Part shown: piece after piece, positions 27,750-63,799 of the stretch
Numbering within the stretch: the stretch's first letter is position 1
Layout: each line of letters starts with the position of its first letter
Assembly: GCA_026396805.1 (NCBI GenBank)
Contig: JAPLVZ010000012.1
Location: 8,127 to 72,126 of the forward strand
Direction of reading: 5' to 3'
Source: Candidatus Falkowbacteria bacterium
GTDB taxonomy: Bacteria; Patescibacteriota; Patescibacteriia; Patescibacteriales; UBA12465
Length of the DNA: 64,000 nt
Program-made: the position numbers and the translations under genes
Notes under the pieces: model-generated
Database searches by the model: none
The model's input: the letters and a program-made list of their open reading frames with translations, nothing else
Told to the model about the DNA's origin: nothing

Positions 27750-28706
27750 ATGAAGATTCTGATTACCGGCGGCGCCGGATTTATCGGCTCGCATCTCTGT
27801 AAACGGCTCCTGGAAGAAGGAAATGAAGTAATCTGCCTGGATAATTTTTTTACCGGCGACGAGGCCAATATCCGGCCGCTTTTGAAAAATCCGAAATTTG
27901 AACTGCGGCGGCATGATATCACTTCCCCTTTAAACATAGAAGTTGATCAAATTTACAATTTAGCCTGCCCGGCTTCGCCCATCCATTATCAATTTGATCC
28001 GGTCCAGACTACAAAAACCTCTGTTTATGGCGCTATTAATGTCCTGGATTTGGCGAAAAGAACCAAGGCGACGATACTTCAGGCTTCTACTTCCGAAGTT
28101 TACGGCGACCCCGAAGTCCATCCTCAACCGGAAACTTATTGGGGCAAGGTCAATTGCATCGGAATCAGATCTTGTTACGATGAGGGGAAACGTTGCGCCG
28201 AGACTTTGTTTTTTGATTATTATCGTCAATACAAAACTGATATCCGGGTGATACGGATTTTTAACACTTACGGACCGAATATGCACCCCGGTGACGGCCG
28301 CGTTGTTTCTAATTTTATCGTTCAGGCCTTGAAAAATAAAGATATCACGATTTACGGCGACGGTTCGCAGACCCGCAGTTTTCAATATATTGATGATCTT
28401 ATTGAGGGGATGATTAGGATGATGAATAATCAGGAGAAATTTATCGGTCCGATTAATCTCGGCAATCCGGAAGAGTTTACCATTAAGGAACTGGCAGAAA
28501 CGGTTTTGCGGCTGATTCCGGAGAGTAAGAGTCGGATAATCTACAAAGATTTACCGGCTGATGACCCGCGGCAGAGAAAGCCGGATATAACCCTGGCTAA
28601 GACGAAACTGGGCTGGGAACCGAAAATAAGGCTTGAAGAGGGGCTGAAAAAGACGATTGAATATTTTAGGAAGGGAGTGAAGTGTCCGAAAAAATCGGAC
28701 AGTTGA
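27750..28706 (+). CDS. UDP-glucuronate decarboxylase (UDP-xylose synthase)-like extended SDR
   Basis: GGAGFIGSH and YDEGKRCAE (YxxxK) motifs, with strong overall resemblance to UXS. The last ~11 codons come from repeat R1. Confidence 0.85.
28683..28701. repeat. Hairpin D (Bro-type): tgtccga aaaaa tcggaca
   Basis: Perfect 7-bp arms. It covers the last codons of the UXS gene. It is homologous in position to hairpin C in R2, but with different, compensating arm bases. Confidence 0.8.
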
Positions 28707-28744
28707 AAATGTTGGCTCAAGACGGAAAAACGCGTGAAACTCAT

Positions 28745-28772
28745 AAAAAAAGGCGGCTAGGGCCGTCTTTTT
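28745..28772 (+). terminator. Rho-independent terminator inside R1
   Basis: aaaaaggcggc / gccgtcttttt stem (one G-T pair) followed by a T-run. Confidence 0.7.
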
Positions 28773-28824
28773 GGATAGAGGAAAAGGGGGCGCTATTATT
28801 TATCATTAGCTAGAAATTTCGGTT

Positions 28825-28841
28825 GGTTACAATTTGTAACC
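28825..28841. repeat. Hairpin F: ggttacaa t ttgtaacc
   Basis: Perfect 8-bp arms with the same acaatttgt core as the Bro-type hairpins. It is intergenic, 8 nt from the RhuM stop. Confidence 0.75.
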
Positions 28842-28848
28842 GTTTCTA

Positions 28849-29793
28849 TTACTTTTTTAATCTTTTTTGATTATACTTCGCCAATTCTAATCTAACTTTC
28901 TCCTCCATATCGTCACGAGACACGGCGCCGGCGTTATTTAATACTTTTTCCTTATTAAAGATTAGAAACTCGTTCAATTCATTAACCCAATCTCTCATAT
29001 ACATTAATCTTTCTTTAACGCTTTGCAGTTCGGCAAAAGACAAGAATTGCTCTACCAGTAAATTCAGTCTCTTAAGCTCCAATTCTTCCAGATAATTTTT
29101 AGCGATTTCCGCCTGTTCGCGAGTAATAATTTCCCCTGGCCAATTAGTTAAACCGAGGTTTTCCTTAGAGCTGTCTATCCGACTGTTAACTATCTCCGCG
29201 TCCGTCAGTCCGCTGATGGCATAATGGAATTTATTCTGCACCATCGCAAAAAATTTCTGGGCGTAATCGGTTTTAGGGCTATAATCAACGCTAAGGGCAA
29301 AAATGTCTCTGACTTTTTGATAGAAATTAGCCTCCGAGGTTCTTATCTTTCGGATTCGCTCTTTCAATTCCTGAAAGTATGATTTGGCGACCTTACCGCC
29401 GGCTAATCGCTCATCGTCCATCACGAACCACTTGATAATATACTCTTTTAGCTTTTGAGTCGCCCAGATGCGGAATTGCGTGCCGCGGAGGGAATTAATC
29501 CGATATCCGACCGAGATAATCGCGTCTAGGTTATATAAATTTACGGGTCTTTTCACCTCCTTATTTCCTTCTTTTTGAACTATCAAGTATTCCTTGATAG
29601 TTTGGTTTTCGCTAAGTTCAGCCTCATTAAACACATTTTTTAAATGTAGATTAATATTAGCGACGCCGCAATTGAATAACTCTGCCATTTGAACCTGACT
29701 TAACCAAACAGTCTCATTTTCAAGCTTAACTTCCAGTTTCATCTTCCCGTCTTCCGTGCTGTAAATAATGATTTGATTGTTTTTGTCATTCAT
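28849..29793 (-). CDS. RhuM-family protein (full length)
   Basis: 314 aa. The family-typical blocks WLSQVQMAELF, YNLDAIISVGYRINSLRGTQFRIWATQKL and DDERLAGG are present. ggaggcgga (SD) lies upstream of the ATG. Confidence 0.85.
   Translation of the reverse strand: MNDKNNQIIIYSTEDGKMKLEVKLENETVWLSQVQMAELFNCGVANINLHLKNVFNEAELSENQTIKEYLIVQKEGNKEVKRPVNLYNLDAIISVGYRINSLRGTQFRIWATQKLKEYIIKWFVMDDERLAGGKVAKSYFQELKERIRKIRTSEANFYQKVRDIFALSVDYSPKTDYAQKFFAMVQNKFHYAISGLTDAEIVNSRIDSSKENLGLTNWPGEIITREQAEIAKNYLEELELKRLNLLVEQFLSFAELQSVKERLMYMRDWVNELNEFLIFNKEKVLNNAGAVSRDDMEEKVRLELAKYNQKRLKK
29578..29602. repeat. Intragenic hairpin in RhuM copy 1: aactatcaag (5-nt loop) cttgatagtt
   Basis: Perfect 10-bp arms. 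The frame was checked against the ORF, and it encodes TIKEYLIV. Confidence 0.9.
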
Positions 29794-29943
29794 AAGATTT
29801 GCTCCGCCTCCGCTTATTGGCGGCCACGCGGATTAAAATTAATTATTATATTATTCAGCTTAGCAAAACAGCGATAAAGCCAAGTTAAATAAAAAATAAA
29901 GGATTTTTTTATTTGACGCCGGAGACGGAAGTGAAGTGGTCAC

Positions 29944-29968
29944 AAACCGTGACAATTTGTCACGGTTT
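29944..29968. repeat. Hairpin E (Bro-type): aaaccgtgacaa t ttgtcacggttt
   Basis: Perfect 12-bp arms. In one frame it reads QTVTICHGF, which parallels QLSTICRQL of the Bro-N-like genes. Confidence 0.85.
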
Positions 29969-29985
29969 CGTTAAGGAAGTGAGTC

Positions 29986-30002
29986 TGTCACAAAATGTGA
30001 CA
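29986..30002. repeat. Hairpin C (Bro-type): tgtcaca aaa tgtgaca
   Basis: Perfect 7-bp arms. Relative to hairpin D, two arm positions changed on both sides and pairing is kept (cg/cg becomes ac/gt). Confidence 0.8.
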
Positions 30003-30044
30003 AACTGGAGATGTTGGCTCAAGACGGGAAAATGCGTGAAACTT

Positions 30045-30074
30045 ATAAAAAAGACGGCCAGAGCCGTCTTTTTG
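30045..30074 (+). terminator. Rho-independent terminator inside R2
   Basis: aaaaaagacggc / gccgtcttttt perfect stem followed by a T-run. The G-T pair of R1 is an A-T pair here. Confidence 0.7.
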
Positions 30075-30174
30075 AATAGGGGGAAAGGGAACGCTATTAC
30101 CGTCTTTTAGAAACGCTTTTTATCAGTCCGATGACTCCTCTCCACGCTTAGTTTATATTCATCTATTCTCTTTA

Positions 30175-30372
30175 CAAAATGTGTTTAATGAGGCTGAGCT
30201 TAGCGAAAACCGAACTATTCGGAAATTCCGAATAACTGCCGCTGACGGAAAAACATATGATACTAATCTTTATAATCTTGACGTAATTATTTCCGTGGGT
30301 TACCGAGTTAACTCTCTCCGTGGCACTCAATTCCGTATTTAGGCAACCCAGAAGCTAAAAGAATAAATAATA
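30175..30372 (+). pseudogene. RhuM relic (internal fragment with two nonsense codons)
   Basis: Translates QNVFNEAELSENRTIRKFRITAADGKTYDTNLYNLDVIISVGYRVNSLRGTQFRI*ATQKLKE*IIK. TGG became TAG at 30340-30342 and TAT became TAA at 30364-30366, relative to the intact copy. Confidence 0.75.
30216..30234. repeat. Hairpin in the RhuM relic: tattcgga aat tccgaata
   Basis: Perfect 8-bp arms at the same codon position as in the other RhuM copies. It encodes IRKFRI. Confidence 0.85.
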
Positions 30373-30446
30373 AAATTTTATAGAACTTATCCAATTGTCG
30401 CGACACTGTCACGACAATTAAGCTAGTCACATTATGTTGAGTTAAT
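30373..30446 (+). pseudogene. DUF1016/YhcG relic fused in frame to the RhuM relic
   Basis: Reads FYRTYPIVATLSRQLS*SHYVELIEL, compared with FYRAYPIVQTVSAQLSWSHYVELIEL in the intact gene 500 bp downstream. Confidence 0.7.
30392..30420. repeat. Hairpin in the DUF1016 relic: caattgtcgcgaca c tgtcacgacaatta
   Basis: 12 of 14 arm positions pair. Three arm bases differ from the intact copy on each side, and two of the three pairs are restored. Confidence 0.8.
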
Positions 30447-30447
30447 T

Positions 30448-30482
30448 GAGCTCCTTTGTGAAGAGAGAGGGGGCTCTTTTTT
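30448..30482 (+). terminator. Rho-independent terminator
   Basis: gagctcc (30448-30454) pairs with ggggctc (30470-30476), followed by T6. Confidence 0.6.
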
Positions 30483-30551
30483 GTATGGAAAAGCAGTTTG
30501 TCCGATGTTTTCACGTCAGAAAAAGTCTTTATCTTTTCTTCATATCCGGTT

Positions 30552-30560
30552 TGGTATAAT
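30552..30560 (+). promoter_or_regulatory. Extended -10 element (tggtataat) upstream of the DUF1016 gene
   Basis: TGnTATAAT lies 30 nt upstream of the ATG at 30590. No clear -35 was seen. Confidence 0.35.
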
Positions 30561-30589
30561 AGGGTGATTATTATTAATCATTTAAATTT

Positions 30590-31585
30590 ATGAAAAAAGT
30601 AAAAATCAGCGGAATTAATAAAAGCCTGGCAAATCCAAGCGATTATGGGAATCTATTACATGAGTTAAAAGGAATTATTATTAAAGGACAAAACAAGGCC
30701 TATAAAGCCATAGATAATATTAAAGTCCAGACGTATTGGCAGATAGGCGAACGGATAGTTAGGGAGGAATTAAAAAATAAAGATAGGGCTGAATATGAAA
30801 AGTATTTAATAGAGAATCTGGCCGTAGATCTAAATATTGGCAAACGCGTTTTATATGAAATAGTTAAATTTTATAGAGCTTATCCAATTGTGCAGACAGT
30901 GTCTGCACAATTGAGCTGGTCTCATTATGTTGAGTTAATTGAACTAAGTGATAATAAAGAACGTCAATTTTACGAAAGTAAGATAGTAGCTAACTCCTGG
31001 TCTATCCGGGAACTTAAAGAGCAGATTAAAAATCGTCTCTATCAGAAAACCGATGACAAAGAAAAGGAAAAAATGTTAAAAACCAAGCTTCCGGCTGTAG
31101 TCGACCTGCAAAAAATATTCAAGCCCGATTACGATTTTAATTTTTTAGAAATAGCGCCCAGCCATCAAGAAAAAGAGCTGGAAGATAAAATCATTTCCAA
31201 TATCGAATATTTCCTCAAGGAATTAGGTAATGATTTTATGTTTCTGGGTCGACAAGTACCCATATTAATCGATAATGAGAAGCATTATATCGATTTAGTC
31301 TTGTATCATCGCGGCATTCCTTGTGTTATTCTAGTCGATCTTAAGGCTGATAAACTAGATAGCCGCGATATCGGTCAAATGAATAAATATATTGGCTATT
31401 ATCGCCATAATAGACAGTATGTTTACGAAAACGACACTATTGGCCTTATTATCTGTAAAGAACTGGGTCATGAAGAAGTAATCTATGCTTTAGACGGTTT
31501 AGAGGAAAAGATATTTGTTTCTCTATATAAAACAAAACTGCCAAGCGAAGAGAGAATTAAACGAGCGGTGAGAGGGATAAATTAG
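30590..31585 (+). CDS. DUF1016/YhcG-family PD-(D/E)XK nuclease-like protein
   Basis: 331 aa. The N-terminal block is IVQTVSAQLSWSHYVELI. The C-terminal core is YIDLVLYH...VILVDLKADKL (D...DxK). Confidence 0.8.
   Translation: MKKVKISGINKSLANPSDYGNLLHELKGIIIKGQNKAYKAIDNIKVQTYWQIGERIVREELKNKDRAEYEKYLIENLAVDLNIGKRVLYEIVKFYRAYPIVQTVSAQLSWSHYVELIELSDNKERQFYESKIVANSWSIRELKEQIKNRLYQKTDDKEKEKMLKTKLPAVVDLQKIFKPDYDFNFLEIAPSHQEKELEDKIISNIEYFLKELGNDFMFLGRQVPILIDNEKHYIDLVLYHRGIPCVILVDLKADKLDSRDIGQMNKYIGYYRHNRQYVYENDTIGLIICKELGHEEVIYALDGLEEKIFVSLYKTKLPSEERIKRAVRGIN
30885..30913. repeat. Intragenic hairpin in the DUF1016 gene: caattgtgcagaca g tgtctgcacaattg
   Basis: Perfect 14-bp arms. The frame was checked, and it encodes PIVQTVSAQL. 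Confidence 0.9.
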
Positions 31586-36806: not shown

Positions 36807-37940
36807 ATGGAAAATAAGCAAATAAAACGTGATATTGAAAAAAATATCAGAGATTGGTTATTTAAAGGTAAAATAATCATTCTTTATGGCGCGCGCCAAG
36901 TTGGTAAAACAACCTTGGCTAAAAAGCTTTTAAGAGAGCATGGTCGTCCGACAGATTATTTTAATTGCGAAATTTCCTCCATCAGATCGGCCTTGGAAAA
37001 AGAAGATCCGACAGCCTTAAAAAAGTTTTTAGGCGACGGTCGTTTGATTGTTTTAGATGAAGCGCAAAAAGTAAGTAATATCGGATTAATTTTAAAACTC
37101 CTGTTAGATACCTATCCGAATATACAGATTGTCGCCACCGGTTCATCTTCTTTTGATTTGGCCAATCAAGTTAATGAGCCCTTGACCGGCCGCGCCTTAG
37201 AATTCACGCTTTATCCTTTTTCATTGCGTGAACTTAAAAATTTCTATAAAAATTATGAGCTTGAAGGGCAATTGGAAAATTTATTGATTTATGGATTATA
37301 TCCGGAAATAGTAAAAAGCGATTCGACCAACGCTCGCCAGCTTTTAGATAATTTAAGCAATAAATATTTGTATCAAGATATTTTAATTTTTAATCGGATT
37401 AAAAAGTCCGGTTTGATTGTTAAATTACTGCAGCTCTTAGCTTTGCAGATCGGGAACGAGGTATCGATTAATGAATTGGCCGTTAATCTGCAATGCAGTC
37501 GCGATACGGTTGTTAATTATTTGGATATTTTGGAAAAAGCGTTTATTATTTTCCGTCTGCGCGCCTATAGCCGGAATCAGCGTAAGGAAATCGTCAAAAA
37601 ACAAAAAATTTATTTTGTTGATTTGGGAATCAGGAATAGTTTAATCAGCCGTTATAATGAACTGGCGGTTCGTGATGATGTCGGCGCTTTATGGGAAAAT
37701 TTTTGTATTATTGAGCGTTTGAAAAAAATTCAGGCCGATAATTTATATTGTCAAAAATATTTTTGGCGCGCAATCAGTCAAAAGAAAGTTGATTATGTAG
37801 AAGAATACAACGATCGTCTGGACGGTTATGAATTTAAATGGGGTAAAGGCAAGGCGTCGGCGCCTAAAGAATTTTTAGCTTATAAAAACAGTCGCGTTAA
37901 TTTGATAAATCGTGATAATTACCAAGAATTTTTAACATAG
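36807..37940 (+). CDS. AAA-type ATPase with a DUF4143-like C-terminal domain
   Basis: GARQVGKTTLA (Walker A) and VLDEAQ (Walker B). The architecture is typical of the AAA_14/DUF4143 family. Confidence 0.8.
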   Translation: MENKQIKRDIEKNIRDWLFKGKIIILYGARQVGKTTLAKKLLREHGRPTDYFNCEISSIRSALEKEDPTALKKFLGDGRLIVLDEAQKVSNIGLILKLLLDTYPNIQIVATGSSSFDLANQVNEPLTGRALEFTLYPFSLRELKNFYKNYELEGQLENLLIYGLYPEIVKSDSTNARQLLDNLSNKYLYQDILIFNRIKKSGLIVKLLQLLALQIGNEVSINELAVNLQCSRDTVVNYLDILEKAFIIFRLRAYSRNQRKEIVKKQKIYFVDLGIRNSLISRYNELAVRDDVGALWENFCIIERLKKIQADNLYCQKYFWRAISQKKVDYVEEYNDRLDGYEFKWGKGKASAPKEFLAYKNSRVNLINRDNYQEFLT

Positions 37941-38070: not shown

Positions 38071-38562
38071 ATGGAAAACCTAAATTCACAAATTGTAATA
38101 TATAAAGATCAAAATGGACATATCAAAATCGATGTTCGTTTTGATGGTGATACTGTCTGGCTGACCCAAGATCTTATATCAATTTTATTTAATAAAGCAA
38201 AATCTACTATAAACGAACATATAAAAAATATATATGCTGAAAGTGAGTTGTCAGAGCTAAGTTCAATGAGAAAATTCGGAAATTCCGAATTTTCTACAAA
38301 ACCTACTAATTATTACAACTTAGACCTAATTATCGCTGTTGGCTATCGGGTAAAATCACCCCAAGGCACTATTTTCCGCAAATGGGCCACCGAGAGGCTC
38401 TCGGAATATATTGTTAAGGGTTTTGTATTAGATGATGAGAGGTTAAAAAACCCGGATTTGCCGTTTGATTATTTTGAGGAATTAACCCGTCGCCTTGCGG
38501 ATATTCGCACAGAAATCTTGATGATATTAAATTTTTGTGGCGGGCGGGAACGAAGGTATTAG
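38071..38562 (+). pseudogene. RhuM-family gene truncated after ~147 codons
   Basis: The N-terminal 147 aa are RhuM-like (WLTQDLISILF, YNLDLIIAVGYRVKSPQGTIFRKWATERL, DDERLKNP). Homology stops at ...ADIRTE (~38513), and the remaining reading is out-of-frame radical SAM tail. Confidence 0.75.
38269..38295. repeat. Intragenic hairpin in RhuM copy 3: agaaaattcgga aat tccgaattttct
   Basis: Perfect 12-bp arms. The frame was checked, and it encodes RKFGNSEFS. Confidence 0.9.
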
Positions 38563-54337: not shown

Positions 54338-54502
54338 ATTAGAACTGGGGGTGGGATTTTGTGAGGAGGAAGAAAGATTTGATAGAGGTTGAGGAGGTTA
54401 GTGTTATTGAAGGTTAGGGGGTGGCGCTATGTGTCCGCTTGAGGGTCTGAGATGGTGCTGGGCGATTGTTTACGCAAGATAGGACTAAATTACATCAAAT
54501 TT

Positions 54503-55243
54503 ATGACTAATACTTACAAAATTAAAGATAAACTATTAATAATTGGCGACGGTCGTTATAGTAATGAAGAAATCATGGCATTATACAGAGAAATAGAAAA
54601 TCACATTTTTCGTTCGGAATTTAATGAAGATTTAAATGCTTGTCTTGATGATTGCTTACATAAGATTAAAGCAACCTGGTATCATCTTTCTACTATTAAA
54701 CAAGAGGTTGAAGAAATAATGACGCACCCGAAACATTATTTGCAGCAACAAGTTTTTCAGTCTTATCCAAAAATAGAATTTCAAGATAATCGTCTTATTT
54801 ATGAGATAGAAGCTTTTTTATTTCAGGTAAAAAGTAATTTGGATATTATCGTACAAGTCCTAACTTTCTTTTATCCTAATTTAAAAAGTGAAAATGCCGA
54901 TAGGCCTAATGGTTTTGATGGTAAAAAGAGGCTAGCTGGTTACAAAACAATTGAAAAGTTAACGACAGCTGGAGAGGCTAGATTAGCTGATTATTTTAAA
55001 GGGGAGGTAAGTGATTGGATTCAAGAAATGGTTGATTTGCGTAATACTGTCACTCACAAAACTCAACTGGAAAACTACCAGTCATTTTTAATAACGGAAA
55101 TGTTATCTAACGAGCTTGAAATAAAAACACCACTAATGCCTTCGGGGCAAAAAGTGGAAGTTTATTGTCAATTAGTTTTTGATAAATTATTAAATTTTTA
55201 TCGGACAGTGTTTGTAGATATTATTGGCGAATATAAAAAATAG
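54503..55243 (+). CDS. Hypothetical protein with a HEPN-like Rx4H motif
   Basis: ~246 aa, predicted mostly helical. MVDLRNTVTHK contains R-N-x3-H, as in Abi/HEPN families. The ATG at 54503 is preferred. Confidence 0.4.
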   Translation: MTNTYKIKDKLLIIGDGRYSNEEIMALYREIENHIFRSEFNEDLNACLDDCLHKIKATWYHLSTIKQEVEEIMTHPKHYLQQQVFQSYPKIEFQDNRLIYEIEAFLFQVKSNLDIIVQVLTFFYPNLKSENADRPNGFDGKKRLAGYKTIEKLTTAGEARLADYFKGEVSDWIQEMVDLRNTVTHKTQLENYQSFLITEMLSNELEIKTPLMPSGQKVEVYCQLVFDKLLNFYRTVFVDIIGEYKK

Positions 55244-55453: not shown

Positions 55454-56161
55454 ATGGCTAAAAATGACAAACAAAATGAAATTAATAAAATAGTCTTGTT
55501 TAAAGGGCAAAAGATTAGGCGAATTATTTTTAATGATGAATGGTGGTTTTCTGTTGTTGATGTTTGCGGAGTGTTGGTGGAAAGTACAAACGCTAGAGAT
55601 TATTGGTATAGAGTAAAAAGTAGAGTTGAAGATGAAGAAAAACTTCAACTGTCGACAATTTGTCGACAGTTGAAGTTAGAGTCGCCTGACGGCAAAATGC
55701 GTGAAACCGATTGCGCAAATACCGAAGGATTATTCCGTATTATTCAGTCTATCCCTTCGCCGAAAGCTGAACCGTTTAAACGTTGGTTGGCTAAGGTCGG
55801 CTATGAGCGAGTTCAAGAAATTCAAGATCCAGAATTAGCGACTAAAAGAACTAGAGAACTCTATAAGCTAAAGGGTTATAGCGATTCCTGGATTGAAAAG
55901 CGGCTGCGCGGTATCGCTATTCGCGAAGAATTAACTGATGAATGGAAAAATAGAGGGGCGAGAGAAAAAAAGGATTATGAAATTTTAACGGCGGAAATAT
56001 CAAAAGCGACTTTTGGATTAACCCCGGTTCAGTACAAAAAAGTTAAGAGTCTGGGCAAAGAGAATTTGCGCGATCATATGGAAGATATTGAAAAACAATC
56101 TGACGCTAAAGTTGCCAGTTCGAATAATTTTTTAGGGCGGAAAAATCACCAGCTAGAATGA
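55454..56161 (+). CDS. Bro-N / DinD-like protein (copy A, with an internal deletion near the C-terminus)
   Basis: 235 aa with WWFSVVDVCGVL, DGKMRETDCANTEGLFRIIQSIPSPKAEPFKRWLAKVG. Relative to copy B it lacks ~45 aa between NLRDHM and the C-terminal tail. Confidence 0.8.
   Translation: MAKNDKQNEINKIVLFKGQKIRRIIFNDEWWFSVVDVCGVLVESTNARDYWYRVKSRVEDEEKLQLSTICRQLKLESPDGKMRETDCANTEGLFRIIQSIPSPKAEPFKRWLAKVGYERVQEIQDPELATKRTRELYKLKGYSDSWIEKRLRGIAIREELTDEWKNRGAREKKDYEILTAEISKATFGLTPVQYKKVKSLGKENLRDHMEDIEKQSDAKVASSNNFLGRKNHQLE
55641..55677. repeat. Intragenic hairpin in Bro-N-like copy A: aacttcaactgtcgacaa t ttgtcgacagttgaagtt
   Basis: Perfect 18-bp arms. The frame was checked, and it encodes KLQLSTICRQLKL. 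Confidence 0.92.
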
Positions 56162-56203: not shown

Positions 56204-57046
56204 ATGGCTAAAAATTTTAACAAAAACGTCGATAAGAACATCGCCTTATTTGGAAATGATCCGGTCCGTAGAATATGGGATGAAAAGGAAGAACGATGGT
56301 ATTTTAGCGTCGTAGACGTGGTACGAGTTCTCGCGGATAGTTCTCGGCCCGACGCTTACTGGGTCGCGATGAAAGCTCGGGTAAAAAGTGATGATGGAAT
56401 TCAGTTATCTACAATTTGTAGGCAACTGAAGCTGGAGGCTTCTGATGGTAAAAGATATCAGACTGATTGCGCTAATACCGAAGGCGTACTTCGTATCATT
56501 CAATCAATCCCTTCCCCTAAAGCCGAACCCTTTAAGCGCTGGCTGGCTAAGGTCGGACAGGAACGGATACGGGAGATAAACGATCCGGAGATTGCTTTAA
56601 ACCGTTCTCGGGAGCTTTGGCAAAAGCATGGCCGAAGCGAGTCGTGGATTCAACGAAGGATGATGGGGCAAGAAACTAGAAATAAACTGACTGATTATTG
56701 GAGCGAACACGATGTTAAAAAGGGTGATGAGTTTGCGATTCTGACTAATATTATCCACGAAGAATGGAGTGATTTATCGGTGAAAAAGCATAAAGATTTG
56801 AAAGGTTTGAAAACGCAGAATTTACGCGACCACATGAGCGAAGAAGAATTAATTTTCTCCGCCTTAGCCGAAATGTCTACTAGAAAAATCGCGGAAACGG
56901 AACAGACTGCCGGTCTGGAGGCTAATAAAATTCCTGCCAAGAAAGGCGGCAAAATCGCGAAAGATGCGAGAACTGCTTTAGAAGAGAAAACCGGCCAAAG
57001 CGTGATTACCGGTCGGAACTTTTTACCGAAGTTAAAAAATAAATAA
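56204..57046 (+). CDS. Bro-N / DinD-like protein (copy B)
   Basis: 280 aa with the same motif set as copy A. The 5' leader ataataattaattatctgaatttatg is nearly identical to that of copy A. Confidence 0.8.
   Translation: MAKNFNKNVDKNIALFGNDPVRRIWDEKEERWYFSVVDVVRVLADSSRPDAYWVAMKARVKSDDGIQLSTICRQLKLEASDGKRYQTDCANTEGVLRIIQSIPSPKAEPFKRWLAKVGQERIREINDPEIALNRSRELWQKHGRSESWIQRRMMGQETRNKLTDYWSEHDVKKGDEFAILTNIIHEEWSDLSVKKHKDLKGLKTQNLRDHMSEEELIFSALAEMSTRKIAETEQTAGLEANKIPAKKGGKIAKDARTALEEKTGQSVITGRNFLPKLKNK
56400..56430. repeat. Intragenic hairpin in Bro-N-like copy B: ttcagttatctacaa t ttgtaggcaactgaa
   Basis: Of 15 arm positions, 13 are Watson-Crick, one is G-U and one is a mismatch. It sits at the same codon position as in copy A, with different outer arm sequence. 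Confidence 0.85.
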
Positions 57047-62256: not shown

Positions 62257-62262
62257 GTGGGG

Positions 62263-62796
62263 ATGAAAAATAATTTTAAAAAAAATTTTGCTTATATTGA
62301 CGGCGCCAATCTTCATAAAGGAATAAAAGATTTTGGTTGGCGGCTGGATTATAAGCGTTTTCGCGTTTGGCTGAAAGAAAAATACTCAGTTGAATGCGCC
62401 TATTTATTTATCGGATTAATCCCAAAATATAAAGATTTGTATGCTTTTTTGCAAAAATCCGGGTTTACTCTTATTTTTAAAGAAACAACTTATGATGGTA
62501 ATGGCAGGGTGAAAGGAAATTGTGATGCCGATTTGGTTTTAGCGGCGGTACGTGATACTTTTGAAAATTCTTATTTTAAATCAGTTTTAGTTTCTAGCGA
62601 TGGCGATTACGCGGGTTTAGTGAAATTTCTTTTAGAAAAGAATAAGTTTAAAATTTTACTTTCACCGGATGAACATTGTTCGGTTCTATTAAAACGTACC
62701 AACGCCCCGATTTCTTATTTGAGTGATAAGAGAAATATCTTAGAAAATATTGATCGTCTTTATAAAAAAGCCCCCGATGCGGACAAAACCGCATAA
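62263..62796 (+). CDS. NYN (LabA-like PIN-fold) domain protein, copy 1
   Basis: FAYIDGANLHKG, NCDADLVL and VLVSSDGDYAGLV motifs. The ATG at 62263 is preferred to the GTG at 62257. Confidence 0.8.
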   Translation: MKNNFKKNFAYIDGANLHKGIKDFGWRLDYKRFRVWLKEKYSVECAYLFIGLIPKYKDLYAFLQKSGFTLIFKETTYDGNGRVKGNCDADLVLAAVRDTFENSYFKSVLVSSDGDYAGLVKFLLEKNKFKILLSPDEHCSVLLKRTNAPISYLSDKRNILENIDRLYKKAPDADKTA

Positions 62797-62949: not shown

Positions 62950-63231
62950 ATGGACAAGAAAAACAATCAAATCATTATTTACAGTACGGAAGATGGGAAG
63001 ATGAAGCTTGAGGTTAAGCTTGAAAATGAGACCGTTTGGTTAAGTCAAAAACAGATGGCGGAGCTGTTTGACTGTAGTATCCGGAACATCAGCTTACATT
63101 TACAAAATGTGTTTAATGAGGCTGAACTTAGCGAAAATTCAGTTATGAAGGATTACTTCATAACTGCCTCTGACAAAAAGAATTACCTGATTAAATACTA
63201 CAATTTAGACGCGATTATCTCGGTCGGCTAA
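62950..63231 (+). pseudogene. RhuM N-terminal fragment (93 codons)
   Basis: The first ~62 aa are nearly identical to the intact copy at 28849-29793. It stops at ...YNLDAIISVG*, whereas the intact copy continues YRINS. Confidence 0.75.
63140..63166. repeat. Intragenic hairpin in RhuM copy 4: cagttatgaag gatta cttcataactg
   Basis: Perfect 11-bp arms. The frame was checked, and it encodes SVMKDYFITA. Confidence 0.9.
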
Positions 63232-63265: not shown

Positions 63266-63799
63266 ATGATTAATAATAAGCAAATAAAAAATTTGGCGTT
63301 CATAGATGGACAAAATTTATACATGGGTACCGCCAAAAGACAAGTTGATCCATGGAGAATAGATCTTGATCGTTTTCGCGTATATTTGGAGAAAAAATAT
63401 AATACCAGTAAAGCTTATTATTTTTTAGGATATGTCCAAAGAATGAATCAAGAATTATATGAGGAAATTCAAAACGCTGGTTTTGTTTTAGTATTTCGCG
63501 AGCATAATCCGGCGATGATTGGAAAGAAAAAGGGGAATGTAGACTCGGATATTATTTTTCAGATAATGAAAAAAATGTATAAAAAAGAAGATTTTGACAA
63601 AATTATTCTTGTCTCCGGAGATGGTGACTATAAATTGCTGGTCGATTTTTTAATTGAAGAAAACAGATTTAAAAAGATTTTATTTCCTGATAGAAGTAAA
63701 AGATCATCCCTTTACAAAAGTTTGTCAAATAAATTTTTTGCTTATTTGGACGATACCGATATTAAAAATAAGATAAAAAAAAAGAAAAGGGTGCCTTAG
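63266..63799 (+). CDS. NYN (LabA-like PIN-fold) domain protein, copy 2
   Basis: LAFIDGQNLYMG, NVDSDIIF and ILVSGDGDYKLLV motifs. It is a paralogue of 62263-62796. Confidence 0.8.
   Translation: MINNKQIKNLAFIDGQNLYMGTAKRQVDPWRIDLDRFRVYLEKKYNTSKAYYFLGYVQRMNQELYEEIQNAGFVLVFREHNPAMIGKKKGNVDSDIIFQIMKKMYKKEDFDKIILVSGDGDYKLLVDFLIEENRFKKILFPDRSKRSSLYKSLSNKFFAYLDDTDIKNKIKKKKRVP

Follow-up and report, generated by a model that had tools for sequence, protein, structure and literature searches.

A position-fixed, sequence-variable palindrome in DUF1016/YhcG genes of bacteria and archaea, possibly a self-homogenising DNA element

The palindrome and its host gene

The window analysed here is a stretch of 64,000 nucleotides from Candidatus Falkowbacteria bacterium (assembly GCA_026396805.1, contig JAPLVZ010000012.1, positions 8,127 to 72,126 of the forward strand). 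Its subject is a palindrome inside a DUF1016/YhcG gene, considered together with the relic of another such gene just upstream and with palindromes in genes of two further families, RhuM and Bro-N. The DUF1016/YhcG part of the locus comprised the following features, in window coordinates:

30365..30450, plus strand: DUF1016 relic of about 85 nt, covering codons ~90–121 (hidden Markov model (HMM) positions 84–133), with an in-frame stop
30451..30482, plus strand: terminator-like hairpin with T-run closing the relic transcript unit (stem 30451–30472, then GCTCTTTTTT)
30552..30560, plus strand: extended -10-like element TGgTATAAT upstream of the DUF1016 start codon, read by eye and missed by the consensus scan
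30590..31585, plus strand: DUF1016/YhcG gene, 331 amino acids (open reading frame (ORF) list, Pfam, PADLOC)
30885..30913, no strand: perfect palindrome with 14-nt arms (sequence read and repeat search)

The product of the host gene matched the Pfam domains DUF1016_N (residues 26–153, E = 6.5e-32, 110.9 bits against a cut-off of 32.8) and YhcG_C (residues 174–321, E = 2.3e-44, 151.4 bits against a cut-off of 32.5). Its predicted layout is a helical N-terminal domain followed by a C-terminal PD-(D/E)XK nuclease domain. It was also matched over residues 16–327 by the PADLOC model PDLC04807 of PDC-S02 (E = 1e-94). A search with the protein returned 1128 homologues at E ≤ 1e-10, and a PDB sequence search gave no match.

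The arms of the palindrome, 30885–30898 (CAATTGTGCAGACA) and 30900–30913 (TGTCTGCACAATTG), were 100% complementary and enclosed a single G at 30899, the first base of codon V104; the whole element reads caattgtgcagaca g tgtctgcacaattg. It lies in frame and codes for P99–L108 (PIVQTVSAQL), directly before SWSHY. A perfect palindrome with 14-bp arms had been reported at this place from the sequence alone, and the sequence read and the repeat search confirmed it. Taking a per-pair match probability of ~0.26 at 40% GC, ~4e-4 such palindromes would be expected per 64 kb (0.26^14 × 64,000 centres, calculated by hand). Folded as single-stranded DNA, the 49-nt palindrome segment reached -15.6 kcal/mol (z = -6.2), and 0 of 200 shuffles were as stable.

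In an AlphaFold2 model of the host protein (mean predicted local distance difference test score, pLDDT, 65), residues 98–109 formed a non-helical linker between helices 85–97 and 110–116, with pLDDT <50 at residues 101–104. The palindrome may therefore code for a disordered loop of the DUF1016_N domain, as far as a model of moderate quality can indicate. Such a position would fit the free amino-acid variation at the site and the lengthening of the loop by whole units in Escherichia coli, both described below.

Conservation and covariation among homologues

We collected the DNA of 80 homologue loci (41–83% identity) from one-genome-per-species contigs of Patescibacteria, Nitrospirota, Desulfobacterota, Spirochaetes, Omnitrophota, and many DPANN and Methanosarcinales archaea; individual contigs are referred to below by L numbers. 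The pattern CAATTG-N5-CA-S-TG-N5'-CAATTR was found at the same codons in nearly every gene of this set. The N5 stretch was free to vary and nevertheless complementary to its counterpart (for example, gtaaccgca g tgcggttac and ttgacaaca g tgttgtcag). In an alignment of 81 distinct sequences (41–88% identity), 89.8% of the arm cells were paired, compared with 71.7 ± 0.8% after shuffling, and none of 500 shuffles reached the observed value; in slid controls, 26–42% of the cells paired. Six stem pairs covaried, with a score that was again not reached in 500 shuffles, and 190 double-change cells were counted against 59.5 ± 5.6 expected. A covariation analysis of homologues had been suggested by the sequence-only reading, which depended on an excess of complementarity over shuffled controls. 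This excess was present, and the palindrome proved to be family-wide, fixed in position and variable in sequence. A stem of at least 9 pairs was centred at codons 103–105 in 80% of genes, while each of the other 3-codon bins held such a stem in ≤2%.

Across homologues, the peptide at the site was PIV-X-[TS]-[VL]-x-Y-QL, and the residues X and Y varied together: Q, R, H or P occurred with A or G; A, V or G with R or P; and S or T with T or S. Such residue covariation is expected if the first bases of codons X and Y pair with each other. The arms change together even at the cost of altered amino acids. It could be argued that the palindrome is a by-product of the peptide motif plus chance, with nothing at the nucleic-acid level, given that the peptide block is conserved, that the outer boxes follow from P-I-V (cCA ATT Gtg) and Q-L (CAA TTG), and that CAATTG is itself self-complementary. 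When synonymous codons were resampled with the protein fixed and the gene's own codon usage, however, 6.26 of 14 pairs formed compared with 12.14 of 14 observed, and for 79 of the 85 genes the observed pairing was reached by <1% of the resampled sequences. In addition, the amino-acid covariation obeyed base pairing and not chemistry, and non-coding relics remained palindromic. The by-product explanation is already refuted by the covariation and codon-resampling results, and we assign it a vanishingly small probability.

Among distant plasmid homologues (26–39% identity), 9 of 12 kept the palindrome and three had lost it. The keepers came from IncHI-type plasmids of Citrobacter and Klebsiella, from Legionella, from Aeromonas (between hsdM and hsdS) and from Rhodococcus; the palindrome of the high-GC Rhodococcus homologue, CAGTTGCGCAACAG G CTGTTGCGCAACTG, codes for PVAQQAVAQL. 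Homologues without a palindrome (L057, L083, L087 and L090) otherwise looked intact. Taken together, the comparison indicates that the palindrome is an old feature, apparently at the DNA level, of nearly all DUF1016/YhcG genes, from candidate phyla radiation bacteria and archaea to E. coli K-12.

Stem differences between close gene pairs were bimodal, being either 0–1 or 6–8. A hypervariable inner stem was considered and rejected, as divergence in the stem codons was 0.166 and that in the rest of the gene 0.204; the divergence peaks beside the stem corresponded to variable protein segments. Diverged DUF1016 paralogues, each with its own stem, often lay several within a few kb and were often interleaved with RhuM and Bro-N genes, as in L037 (three copies), L059 (two copies) and L160 (RhuM-DUF1016-RhuM-...-DUF1016).

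Relics and hairpin-only units

The DUF1016 relic of the window is the downstream part of a fusion with a RhuM N-terminal relic, and after it come the terminator and then the promoter of the intact gene. Its palindrome at 30392–30420, caattgtCGCgaca c tgtcACGacaatta, forms 12 of 14 pairs. Compared with the gene, gca is changed to cgc in one arm and tgc to acg in the other, so that two of these three pairs are restored (C-G and G-C) and one is a C.A mismatch; the centre differs as well (g to c), as does the last base (g to a). The base changes and the two restored pairs were exactly as the sequence-only reading had described. Its suggestion that the compensations had evolved in place was not borne out, because the relic 29-mer, C.A mismatch included, is identical except for the last base to intact genes of the PIVATLSRQL class (L156–L159). 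The apparent compensatory changes are thus differences between allele classes, and the relic of the window is what is left of another allele, without being derived by decay from the gene beside it.

A syntenic contig, L155, which shares 95.7% identity in the epimerase gene, has the same RhuM::DUF1016 junction. The stem of its relic, caattgtcgcatc gct gatgcgacaatt, belongs to the ASLMR class. Between the relics of the window and of L155, 7 of 11 inner-stem bases differed, the divergence of the flanks being about 7%, and complementarity was kept in both stems. This implies that the stem, which is non-coding here, was replaced as a short patch. As a separate observation on these two contigs, a terminator-plus-promoter module of about 120 nt (window 30470–30592) was reused before different cassettes: in L155 (1500–1622 and 2090–2197) it precedes RhuM and DUF1016, and in the window it precedes DUF1016. 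L155 1500–1622 and window 30470–30592 matched at 82%.

Hairpin-only units of about 37 nt with foreign allele types were found in tandem beside DUF1016 genes in L011 (three), L069, L077 and L057 (two each), L063 and L004. They usually lay 25–185 nt upstream of the start codon and were co-oriented with the gene wherever their flanks could be oriented. When all six frames were searched by HMM for remnants from anywhere in the gene, only the relic of the window and one contig-edge fragment came up. Since the hairpin-only units are too short for this search, motif scans of equal length were used instead. Relics of the block adjacent to the hairpin were found in these scans, four of them confirmed, and of the six QLSWSHY hits that lay outside genes, two were due to chance; three other conserved blocks gave 0, 1 and 2 hits, which were left unchecked. 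DUF1016-type units turned up only in DUF1016 genes and adjoining relics. Just upstream of the DUF1016 gene of L014 lies a perfect palindrome with 21-nt arms (2834–2879; GCTGTCAAACATTGTGTCGGC AGC GCCGACACAATGTTTGACAGC), which resembles a relic unit of the DUF1016 type with arms lengthened in the absence of coding constraint.

Units of yhcG in Escherichia coli

According to Pfam, E. coli YhcG has the same domain architecture as the window protein. In strain K-12 (NC_000913.3; L164 6130–6240, codons 101–137), yhcG contains three tandem in-frame palindromic units, which begin at codons 101, 113 and 125, form 12 of 13, 15 of 16 and 17 of 18 pairs, and encode EIHQTMSGEL, GIPQTPSAEF and KIWQTLSAKSF, respectively. 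Strains carried one, two or three in-frame units of 12–13 codons (36–39 nt). In O157:H7, a 78-nt deletion left one perfect unit, and in O111:H8, an independent 80-nt deletion caused a frameshift. A divergent E. coli allele (about 76% identity) had two units, and the arms of its unit 1 were identical to those of the window palindrome. Two near-identical alleles of this divergent type differed in unit 2 by paired compensatory changes, G>T and C>A.

Rearrangements were also found at the units (L168 2485–2520 and L167 2700–2720; strains 19SZHZ886Rt and NB4833). In one strain, an end of the insertion sequence (IS) IS1 abuts the left arm of unit 3, with the junction inside the unit. In a separate lineage comprising at least five strains, yhcG breaks off at the right arm of unit 3, with an ORF of 101 amino acids annotated as a transposase downstream; the latter was considered as a link to the hairpin-targeting IS200/IS605 elements and dropped, as it had no Pfam match. 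The two breakpoints that could be placed to the base both lie within a 39-nt unit of the 1128-nt gene, which would happen by chance in ~0.1% of cases (hand arithmetic). These data show that the yhcG units are structurally active in vivo.

The classic yhcG alleles of the O157 length-polymorphism assay LSPA-6 presumably differ by 78 bp, which would match the unit deletion. Deletion of units probably underlies the length polymorphism of yhcG used for O157:H7 lineage typing. The gene is one of the six loci of this assay (PMC3514354).

Pairing at the DNA or the RNA level

The stem could in principle be selected in the messenger RNA, as a processing or decay site, as a translational pause, or as an RNA of the type III antitoxin kind that restrains the encoded protein, in which case the relic units would be extra ToxI-like copies. 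As RNA, the 49-nt segment folds stably (-22.4 kcal/mol, z = -4.4 versus dinucleotide shuffles), and the covariation is strong. The tandem relic units of about 37 nt are co-oriented with the gene, and in the window a terminator stands between the relic and the promoter of the gene. At two synonymous sites at the stem ends, G, giving G.T, was used 21 times and C or T twice, so that G.U but not C or U would be tolerated there, which hints at pairing on the sense strand.

The mismatches inside the stem did not follow the RNA pattern. At positions 3–13, the non-Watson-Crick cells comprised 16 G.T, 27 A.C and 37 of transversion type, without any excess of G.U. The third base of codon 107 was A in 81 of 81 sequences, and U.G was never used there. 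The innermost position 13 paired in 79 of 81 sequences, and position 14 in 73 with G.T in the other 8; in a hairpin loop of at least 3 nt these positions could not pair, yet they are complementary, which argues against a sense-strand RNA hairpin. The symmetry was two-fold, and the complementarity extended to the central base pair. The central base was G in 43 sequences, C in 28 and T in one. Thus, T was nearly unused although TTG is synonymous with CTG, and TTG is expected to be the commoner leucine codon in A+T-rich genomes such as that of this window with 40% G+C. In 3 of the 10 arm classes with at least two sequences, sequences with identical arms had G at the centre in some cases and C in others. 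Such a flip would follow from inversion of a 1-nt spacer; a plain G/C transversion could also give it.

The characters of a structured RNA were present only in part: covariation preserved the pairs, but tolerance of G.U over A.C and unconstrained loop bases were not found. Rfam gave no hit at the gathering score in the window and none at E ≤ 1 overlapping 30885–30913. No T-run follows the palindrome (the next bases are AGCTGGTCTCATTATG), and the terminator scan does not list it. An intrinsic terminator or attenuator was therefore ruled out, the hairpin being without a T-run and the scan listing 30451–30472 instead. Transcripts ending or being cleaved at the hairpin, as the sequence-only reading had asked, are not favoured, given the missing T-run, the lack of G.U tolerance, the invariant A of codon 107 and the paired loop positions. 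Furthermore, the relic units bear stems of foreign alleles, and the palindrome is present in two domains, Bacteria and Archaea, that have few enzymes of RNA processing in common.

The resemblance of the relics to ToxI-like type III antitoxin repeats lies in tandem units of ~36 nt upstream of, and co-oriented with, a nuclease gene, and in the terminator between relic and gene in the window. ToxI repeats, however, are near-identical direct repeats processed by the toxin, whereas the YhcG units have differing stems, their main copy is inside the ORF, and their mismatches are not RNA-like. On balance, the pattern of substitutions points to DNA over sense-strand RNA as the level of pairing, and we regard an mRNA hairpin as rather improbable.

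Palindromes in RhuM and Bro-N genes

The four longest coding palindromes of the window all lie in DUF1016, RhuM or Bro-N genes or their relics, and in about 460 kb examined there was almost no other coding palindrome of this size. Besides the DUF1016/YhcG features listed above, the window contained:

28670..28841, plus strand: left Bro-N relic copy, hairpin 28684–28700, with a further Bro-N-type hairpin at 28825–28841
28849..29793, minus strand: intact RhuM gene (PDC-S05; Pfam, PADLOC), palindrome 29578–29602, AACTATCAAG GAATA CTTGATAGTT
29924..30100, plus strand: Bro-N relic with hairpin units 29944–29968 and 29986–30002, a DGKMRET remnant and a terminator; direct repeat of 28670–28800
30176..30342, plus strand: RhuM N-terminal relic (Pfam Virulence_RhuM, E = 2e-13), palindrome 30216–30234, TATTCGGAA A TTCCGAATA
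38071..38562, plus strand: truncated RhuM ORF, perfect palindrome with 13-nt arms at 38269–38295 (repeat search)
55454..56161, plus strand: Bro-N gene (PDC-S13), perfect palindrome with 18-nt arms at 55641–55677, encoding LQLSTICRQLKL
56204..57046, plus strand: second Bro-N gene, quasi-palindrome at the same site, 56402–56428, 11 of 13 pairs by hand
63043..63230, plus strand: third RhuM relic, just upstream of an NYN-domain gene, palindrome 63140–63166, CAGTTATGAAG GATTA CTTCATAACTG

In the 11 Bro-N genes examined, the palindrome stands just before QLK[LM]..DGK. In RhuM genes it precedes ..DGK/EG.R..YNLD, and at least 9 pairs were found at this site in 31 of 36 distinct sequences. The stems differed from gene to gene (for example, S-T-x-C-R versus V-T-x-C-H in Bro-N). 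These stems, each family having its own fixed site, bore out the claim of the sequence-only reading that RhuM and Bro-N share with DUF1016/YhcG a palindrome fixed in position and variable in sequence.

The minus-strand RhuM gene is flanked by direct repeats of the Bro-N relic of ~130 nt (families D1, D2, D5 and D9; 85–89% identity). Each repeat contains one or more Bro-N hairpin units, a DGK.RET remnant and a bidirectional terminator-like hairpin, and the right copy has an internal duplication of 48 nt with a different stem. This arrangement recalls an insertion with a long target duplication. The final codons of the epimerase gene (27750..28706; ...KCPKKSDS*) come from a Bro-N relic hairpin, gtccga aaaaa tcggac (28684–28706), and homology with L155 stops at 28675, just ahead of this hairpin. 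In the cassette island of L004, which has MNT-like, PemK-like, Bro-N and DUF1016 genes (1–530, 1730–1990 and 2830–2960), the same promoter-like module (TTTAGAAAAAGTTTAGAAAAT...TTGCTATCATTA) was found before each gene. Upstream of each module were 2–7 Bro-N-type units (N7-ACAA-N-TTGT-N7') with differing stems and similar linkers. In both L004 and the window, Bro-N-type units were densely arrayed ahead of cassette promoters.

Such arrangements could be read as products of a dedicated recombination system (attC-, dif/pdif- or lox-like) that exchanges single-gene cassettes at the palindrome as its core site, with the tandem relics as insertion scars. The layout of the palindrome, with conserved outer boxes and a variable complementary interior, is attC-like, and its 29 bp can be read as 11+7+11, like the core of a tyrosine recombinase. 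The flanking repeats with Bro-N hairpins around RhuM, the L004 cassette arrays with repeated promoter modules, and integrase genes overlapping DUF1016 on IncHI-type plasmids are also in keeping with such a system. Nevertheless, no recombinase is conserved near the 80 loci, relic boundaries vary and show no single crossover point, variable arms are incompatible with sequence-specific binding of the Xer/Cre type, and a crossover in the middle of a gene would give chimaeras.

Integron attC sites consist of R''/L''-L'/R' boxes with extrahelical bases, measure 57–141 nt, lie at the 3' end of a cassette and have intI nearby. The YhcG palindrome resembles them in being defined by structure, variable in sequence and more conserved in its outer boxes, and attC sites likewise go with small cassettes, with or without a promoter, that include toxin and defence genes. 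It differs in being 29 nt long, perfectly symmetric and inside an ORF, with neither extrahelical bases nor a 3'-end position and without an IntI gene, no attC model having been applied. As a 29-nt perfect intragenic palindrome with no integrase conserved in the 80 loci, the element was not assigned to attC sites. A tyrosine-recombinase core (dif/pdif/lox-like) was rejected as well, the arms varying freely and a recombinase occurring in a few plasmid contexts only. A dedicated recombination site is, in our opinion, quite improbable, more so than an mRNA hairpin.

Genomic context

PADLOC matched the three families to PDC-S02 (DUF1016), PDC-S05 (RhuM) and PDC-S13/S04 (Bro-N), which agrees with the earlier description of all three as typical hitch-hikers of defence or restriction-modification (RM) loci. 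PDC families are candidates only, defined by their embedding in type I RM, BREX or DISARM loci, and this embedding is explained by the authors of that work only through the idea of a 'genomic sink' (bioRxiv 10.1101/2024.01.29.577857). The gene of the window is not in a type I RM, BREX or DISARM locus but in a glycosyltransferase/epimerase cluster, and the homologues in L081 and L084 lie between hsdM and hsdS. Neither a neighbouring gene nor a recombinase was conserved across the 80 loci, which leaves general DNA metabolism or the encoded protein to maintain the palindrome.

Several genes near these families were recorded in addition. An AAA_14-DUF4143 ATPase gene matching PDC-S01 (window 36807–37940) has no long palindrome, and the same is true of a gene with a weak HEPN_Apea hit (54452–55243) beside the two Bro-N genes. 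Two adjacent genes encode NYN-domain nucleases (62257–62796 and 63266–63799), and the third RhuM relic lies upstream of one of them. In L087, from a Paraburkholderia plasmid, and likewise in hit H40, from Burkholderia pseudomallei, an HU-family DNA-binding gene overlaps the start of a palindrome-less DUF1016 gene (2–280 and 277–1461, respectively, in L087). On the IncHI-type plasmids L085 and L091, the overlapping gene at the start of DUF1016 instead encodes a site-specific integrase. A radical S-adenosylmethionine gene with intein and LAGLIDADG hits lies downstream of the island in a syntenic contig (L154 5106–7566).

Comparison with known palindromic elements

Rickettsia palindromic elements (RPEs) are selfish elements of about 100–150 bp, inserted in frame in protein genes and dispersed in many unrelated genes and intergenic sites. 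The YhcG units share with them an in-frame palindromic unit tolerated in surface or loop regions and a unit number that can grow (1–3 in E. coli yhcG). They differ in their size of ~36 nt and in being confined to their own family and its relics; multiplication in frame in a tolerant loop was found, and dispersal into unrelated genes was not.

Repetitive extragenic palindromes (REPs) and the bacterial interspersed mosaic elements (BIMEs) that they form are likewise short palindromic units of 20–40 nt in small clusters, which are IS targets and rearrangement hotspots. REPs are extragenic, occur in high copy and have a tag, GTAG or CGTC, to which RAYT transposases respond (PMC3733652). The YhcG palindrome is intragenic and has no tag, and the window holds family-linked copies only; a REP/BIME assignment was rejected.

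Perfect inverted repeats in functional genes, with both arms coding and with the protein and a stringent secondary structure both preserved, are known from nematomorph mitochondria (PMC6649704). These reach 284 bp and are numerous, organellar and limited to one lineage, whereas the YhcG palindrome is short, is found at one site only and passes on together with a family of mobile prokaryotic genes.

Three further candidates were dropped without a dedicated test: clustering of restriction sites (CAATTG, CASTG); template and variable repeats of diversity-generating retroelements, as the differences were not adenine-specific; and a protein whose recognition residues are coded by its own binding site, for which there was no plausible code. 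In the full-text literature, we found no published description of palindromes in DUF1016/YhcG, RhuM, Bro-N or PDC genes.

Interpretation

We tentatively favour, with slightly less than even confidence, a self-homogenising, recombination-prone DNA palindrome over a sense-strand RNA regulatory hairpin. The palindrome would fold as DNA, either into a cruciform or, in the single-stranded DNA of the replication fork, into a hairpin. Template switching of the nascent strand would then copy one arm from the other, which would homogenise the arms and invert the spacer, and in this way the palindrome would perpetuate itself. It would also be a recombination-prone joint at which copies of defence genes hopping between islands may swap segments, leaving scars centred on the hairpin.

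Template switching between the arms of inverted repeats homogenises arms, inverts spacers and gives multi-residue coding changes (PMC8604942), and it has been proposed for conserved perfect inverted repeats in Proteobacteria (PMC5941160). It would explain the two-fold symmetry, the symmetric mismatches, the G/C flips, the persistence in relics and in both domains, and the bimodal allele classes. Homogenisation of arms was found both in the bimodal stem differences and in the paired G>T and C>A changes of E. coli, and the G/C flips are the expected sign of spacer inversion. Non-coding relics showed the same concerted behaviour of the arms, and it was seen in bacteria as well as archaea. The 36–39-nt unit is duplicated or deleted in tandem in E. 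coli and in the relic arrays, where it coincides with rearrangement breakpoints and with short-patch swaps of alleles.

Known quasipalindrome correction and template switching (in E. coli, in yeast, PMC8604942, and in Proteobacteria, PMC5941160) resemble the YhcG case in arm homogenisation with paired multi-nucleotide, amino-acid-changing differences, in spacer inversion (here of a single G/C), in the absence of strand bias, in acting on coding and non-coding DNA, and in needing no dedicated protein. The known cases, however, either arose recently in single lineages or are short inverted repeats in non-coding DNA, with a mean arm of about 6 bp. In YhcG, one palindrome with 12–14-bp arms stands at one codon position through a whole family and two domains, with two further families besides.

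Several observations weigh against this explanation. Three unrelated defence-candidate families each have an old palindrome at a fixed site, which template switching does not explain and which suggests a selected function. Relics centred on the hairpin have been kept where other conserved blocks have not, which a purely neutral process would not predict. The sliding divergence profile, made without a formal breakpoint analysis, showed no clear breakpoint hotspot at the palindrome. The preference for G.T over C or T at the stem ends hints at pairing on the sense strand. Finally, the assumption that conversion is faster than point mutation draws on quasipalindrome rates of E. coli and not on the present data.

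A selected cis-acting role, as a recombination joint or as a cruciform or operator for the protein encoded by the gene, is hence a serious possibility. In its broader form, DUF1016/YhcG, RhuM and Bro-N would carry a putative class of structure-defined cis-acting DNA elements in coding DNA, forming a cruciform or hairpin and serving cassette exchange, embedding, duplication, or sensing and control by the gene's own protein, with the arrays of relic units as functional parts. We consider this broader form possible, if less probable than self-homogenisation.

In a narrower form, the palindrome would be a DNA site for the gene's own product, bound by a dimer as a cruciform or as a two-fold symmetric duplex, for autoregulation or for self-marking or sensing by a potentially toxic nuclease; the upstream relic units would then be extra operators. 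The strict, DNA-like two-fold symmetry up to the central G:C pair is consistent with such a site, as are the usual position of the relic units upstream of the start codon and their common orientation with the gene. The encoded protein is the sole factor common to the bacterial and archaeal contexts, Bro-N is described as a DNA-binding domain, and an HU-family gene abuts the homologue in L087. By profile and fold recognition, the nuclease domain of YhcG is nearest to YraN-like proteins and archaeal Holliday-junction resolvases (PMC1189080), whereas Foldseek with the AlphaFold2 model of the host protein (pLDDT 65) returned generic PD-(D/E)XK nucleases only (MGME1, NucS and Cas4). RhuM and Bro-N are not resolvase-like and yet show the same trait, and the four palindrome-less homologues look intact. 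In addition, a sequence-specific dimer would leave the complementarity of the uncontacted N5 stretches unexplained, and template switching would still be needed. A site for the gene's own protein therefore appears unlikely, although less so than an mRNA hairpin or a dedicated recombination site.

A common regulatory or mobility mechanism of the three families, as hinted at by the sequence-only reading, is possible, and the breakpoints and copy-number changes of the E. coli units give some support to its mobility or recombination side.

For the three families, which are among PADLOC's commonest single-gene defence candidates, the findings mean that a symmetry of the nucleic acid sets part of the protein sequence. 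How PDC genes become embedded and move has so far been unexplained (bioRxiv 10.1101/2024.01.29.577857), and the three units of K-12 yhcG offer a testable handle in E. coli itself. If the process is purely mutational, the palindrome is probably the clearest prokaryotic case of palindrome-driven concerted amino-acid change across a family. It would then also caution against reading RNA structure or positive selection into every case of covariation and 'compensatory' substitution.

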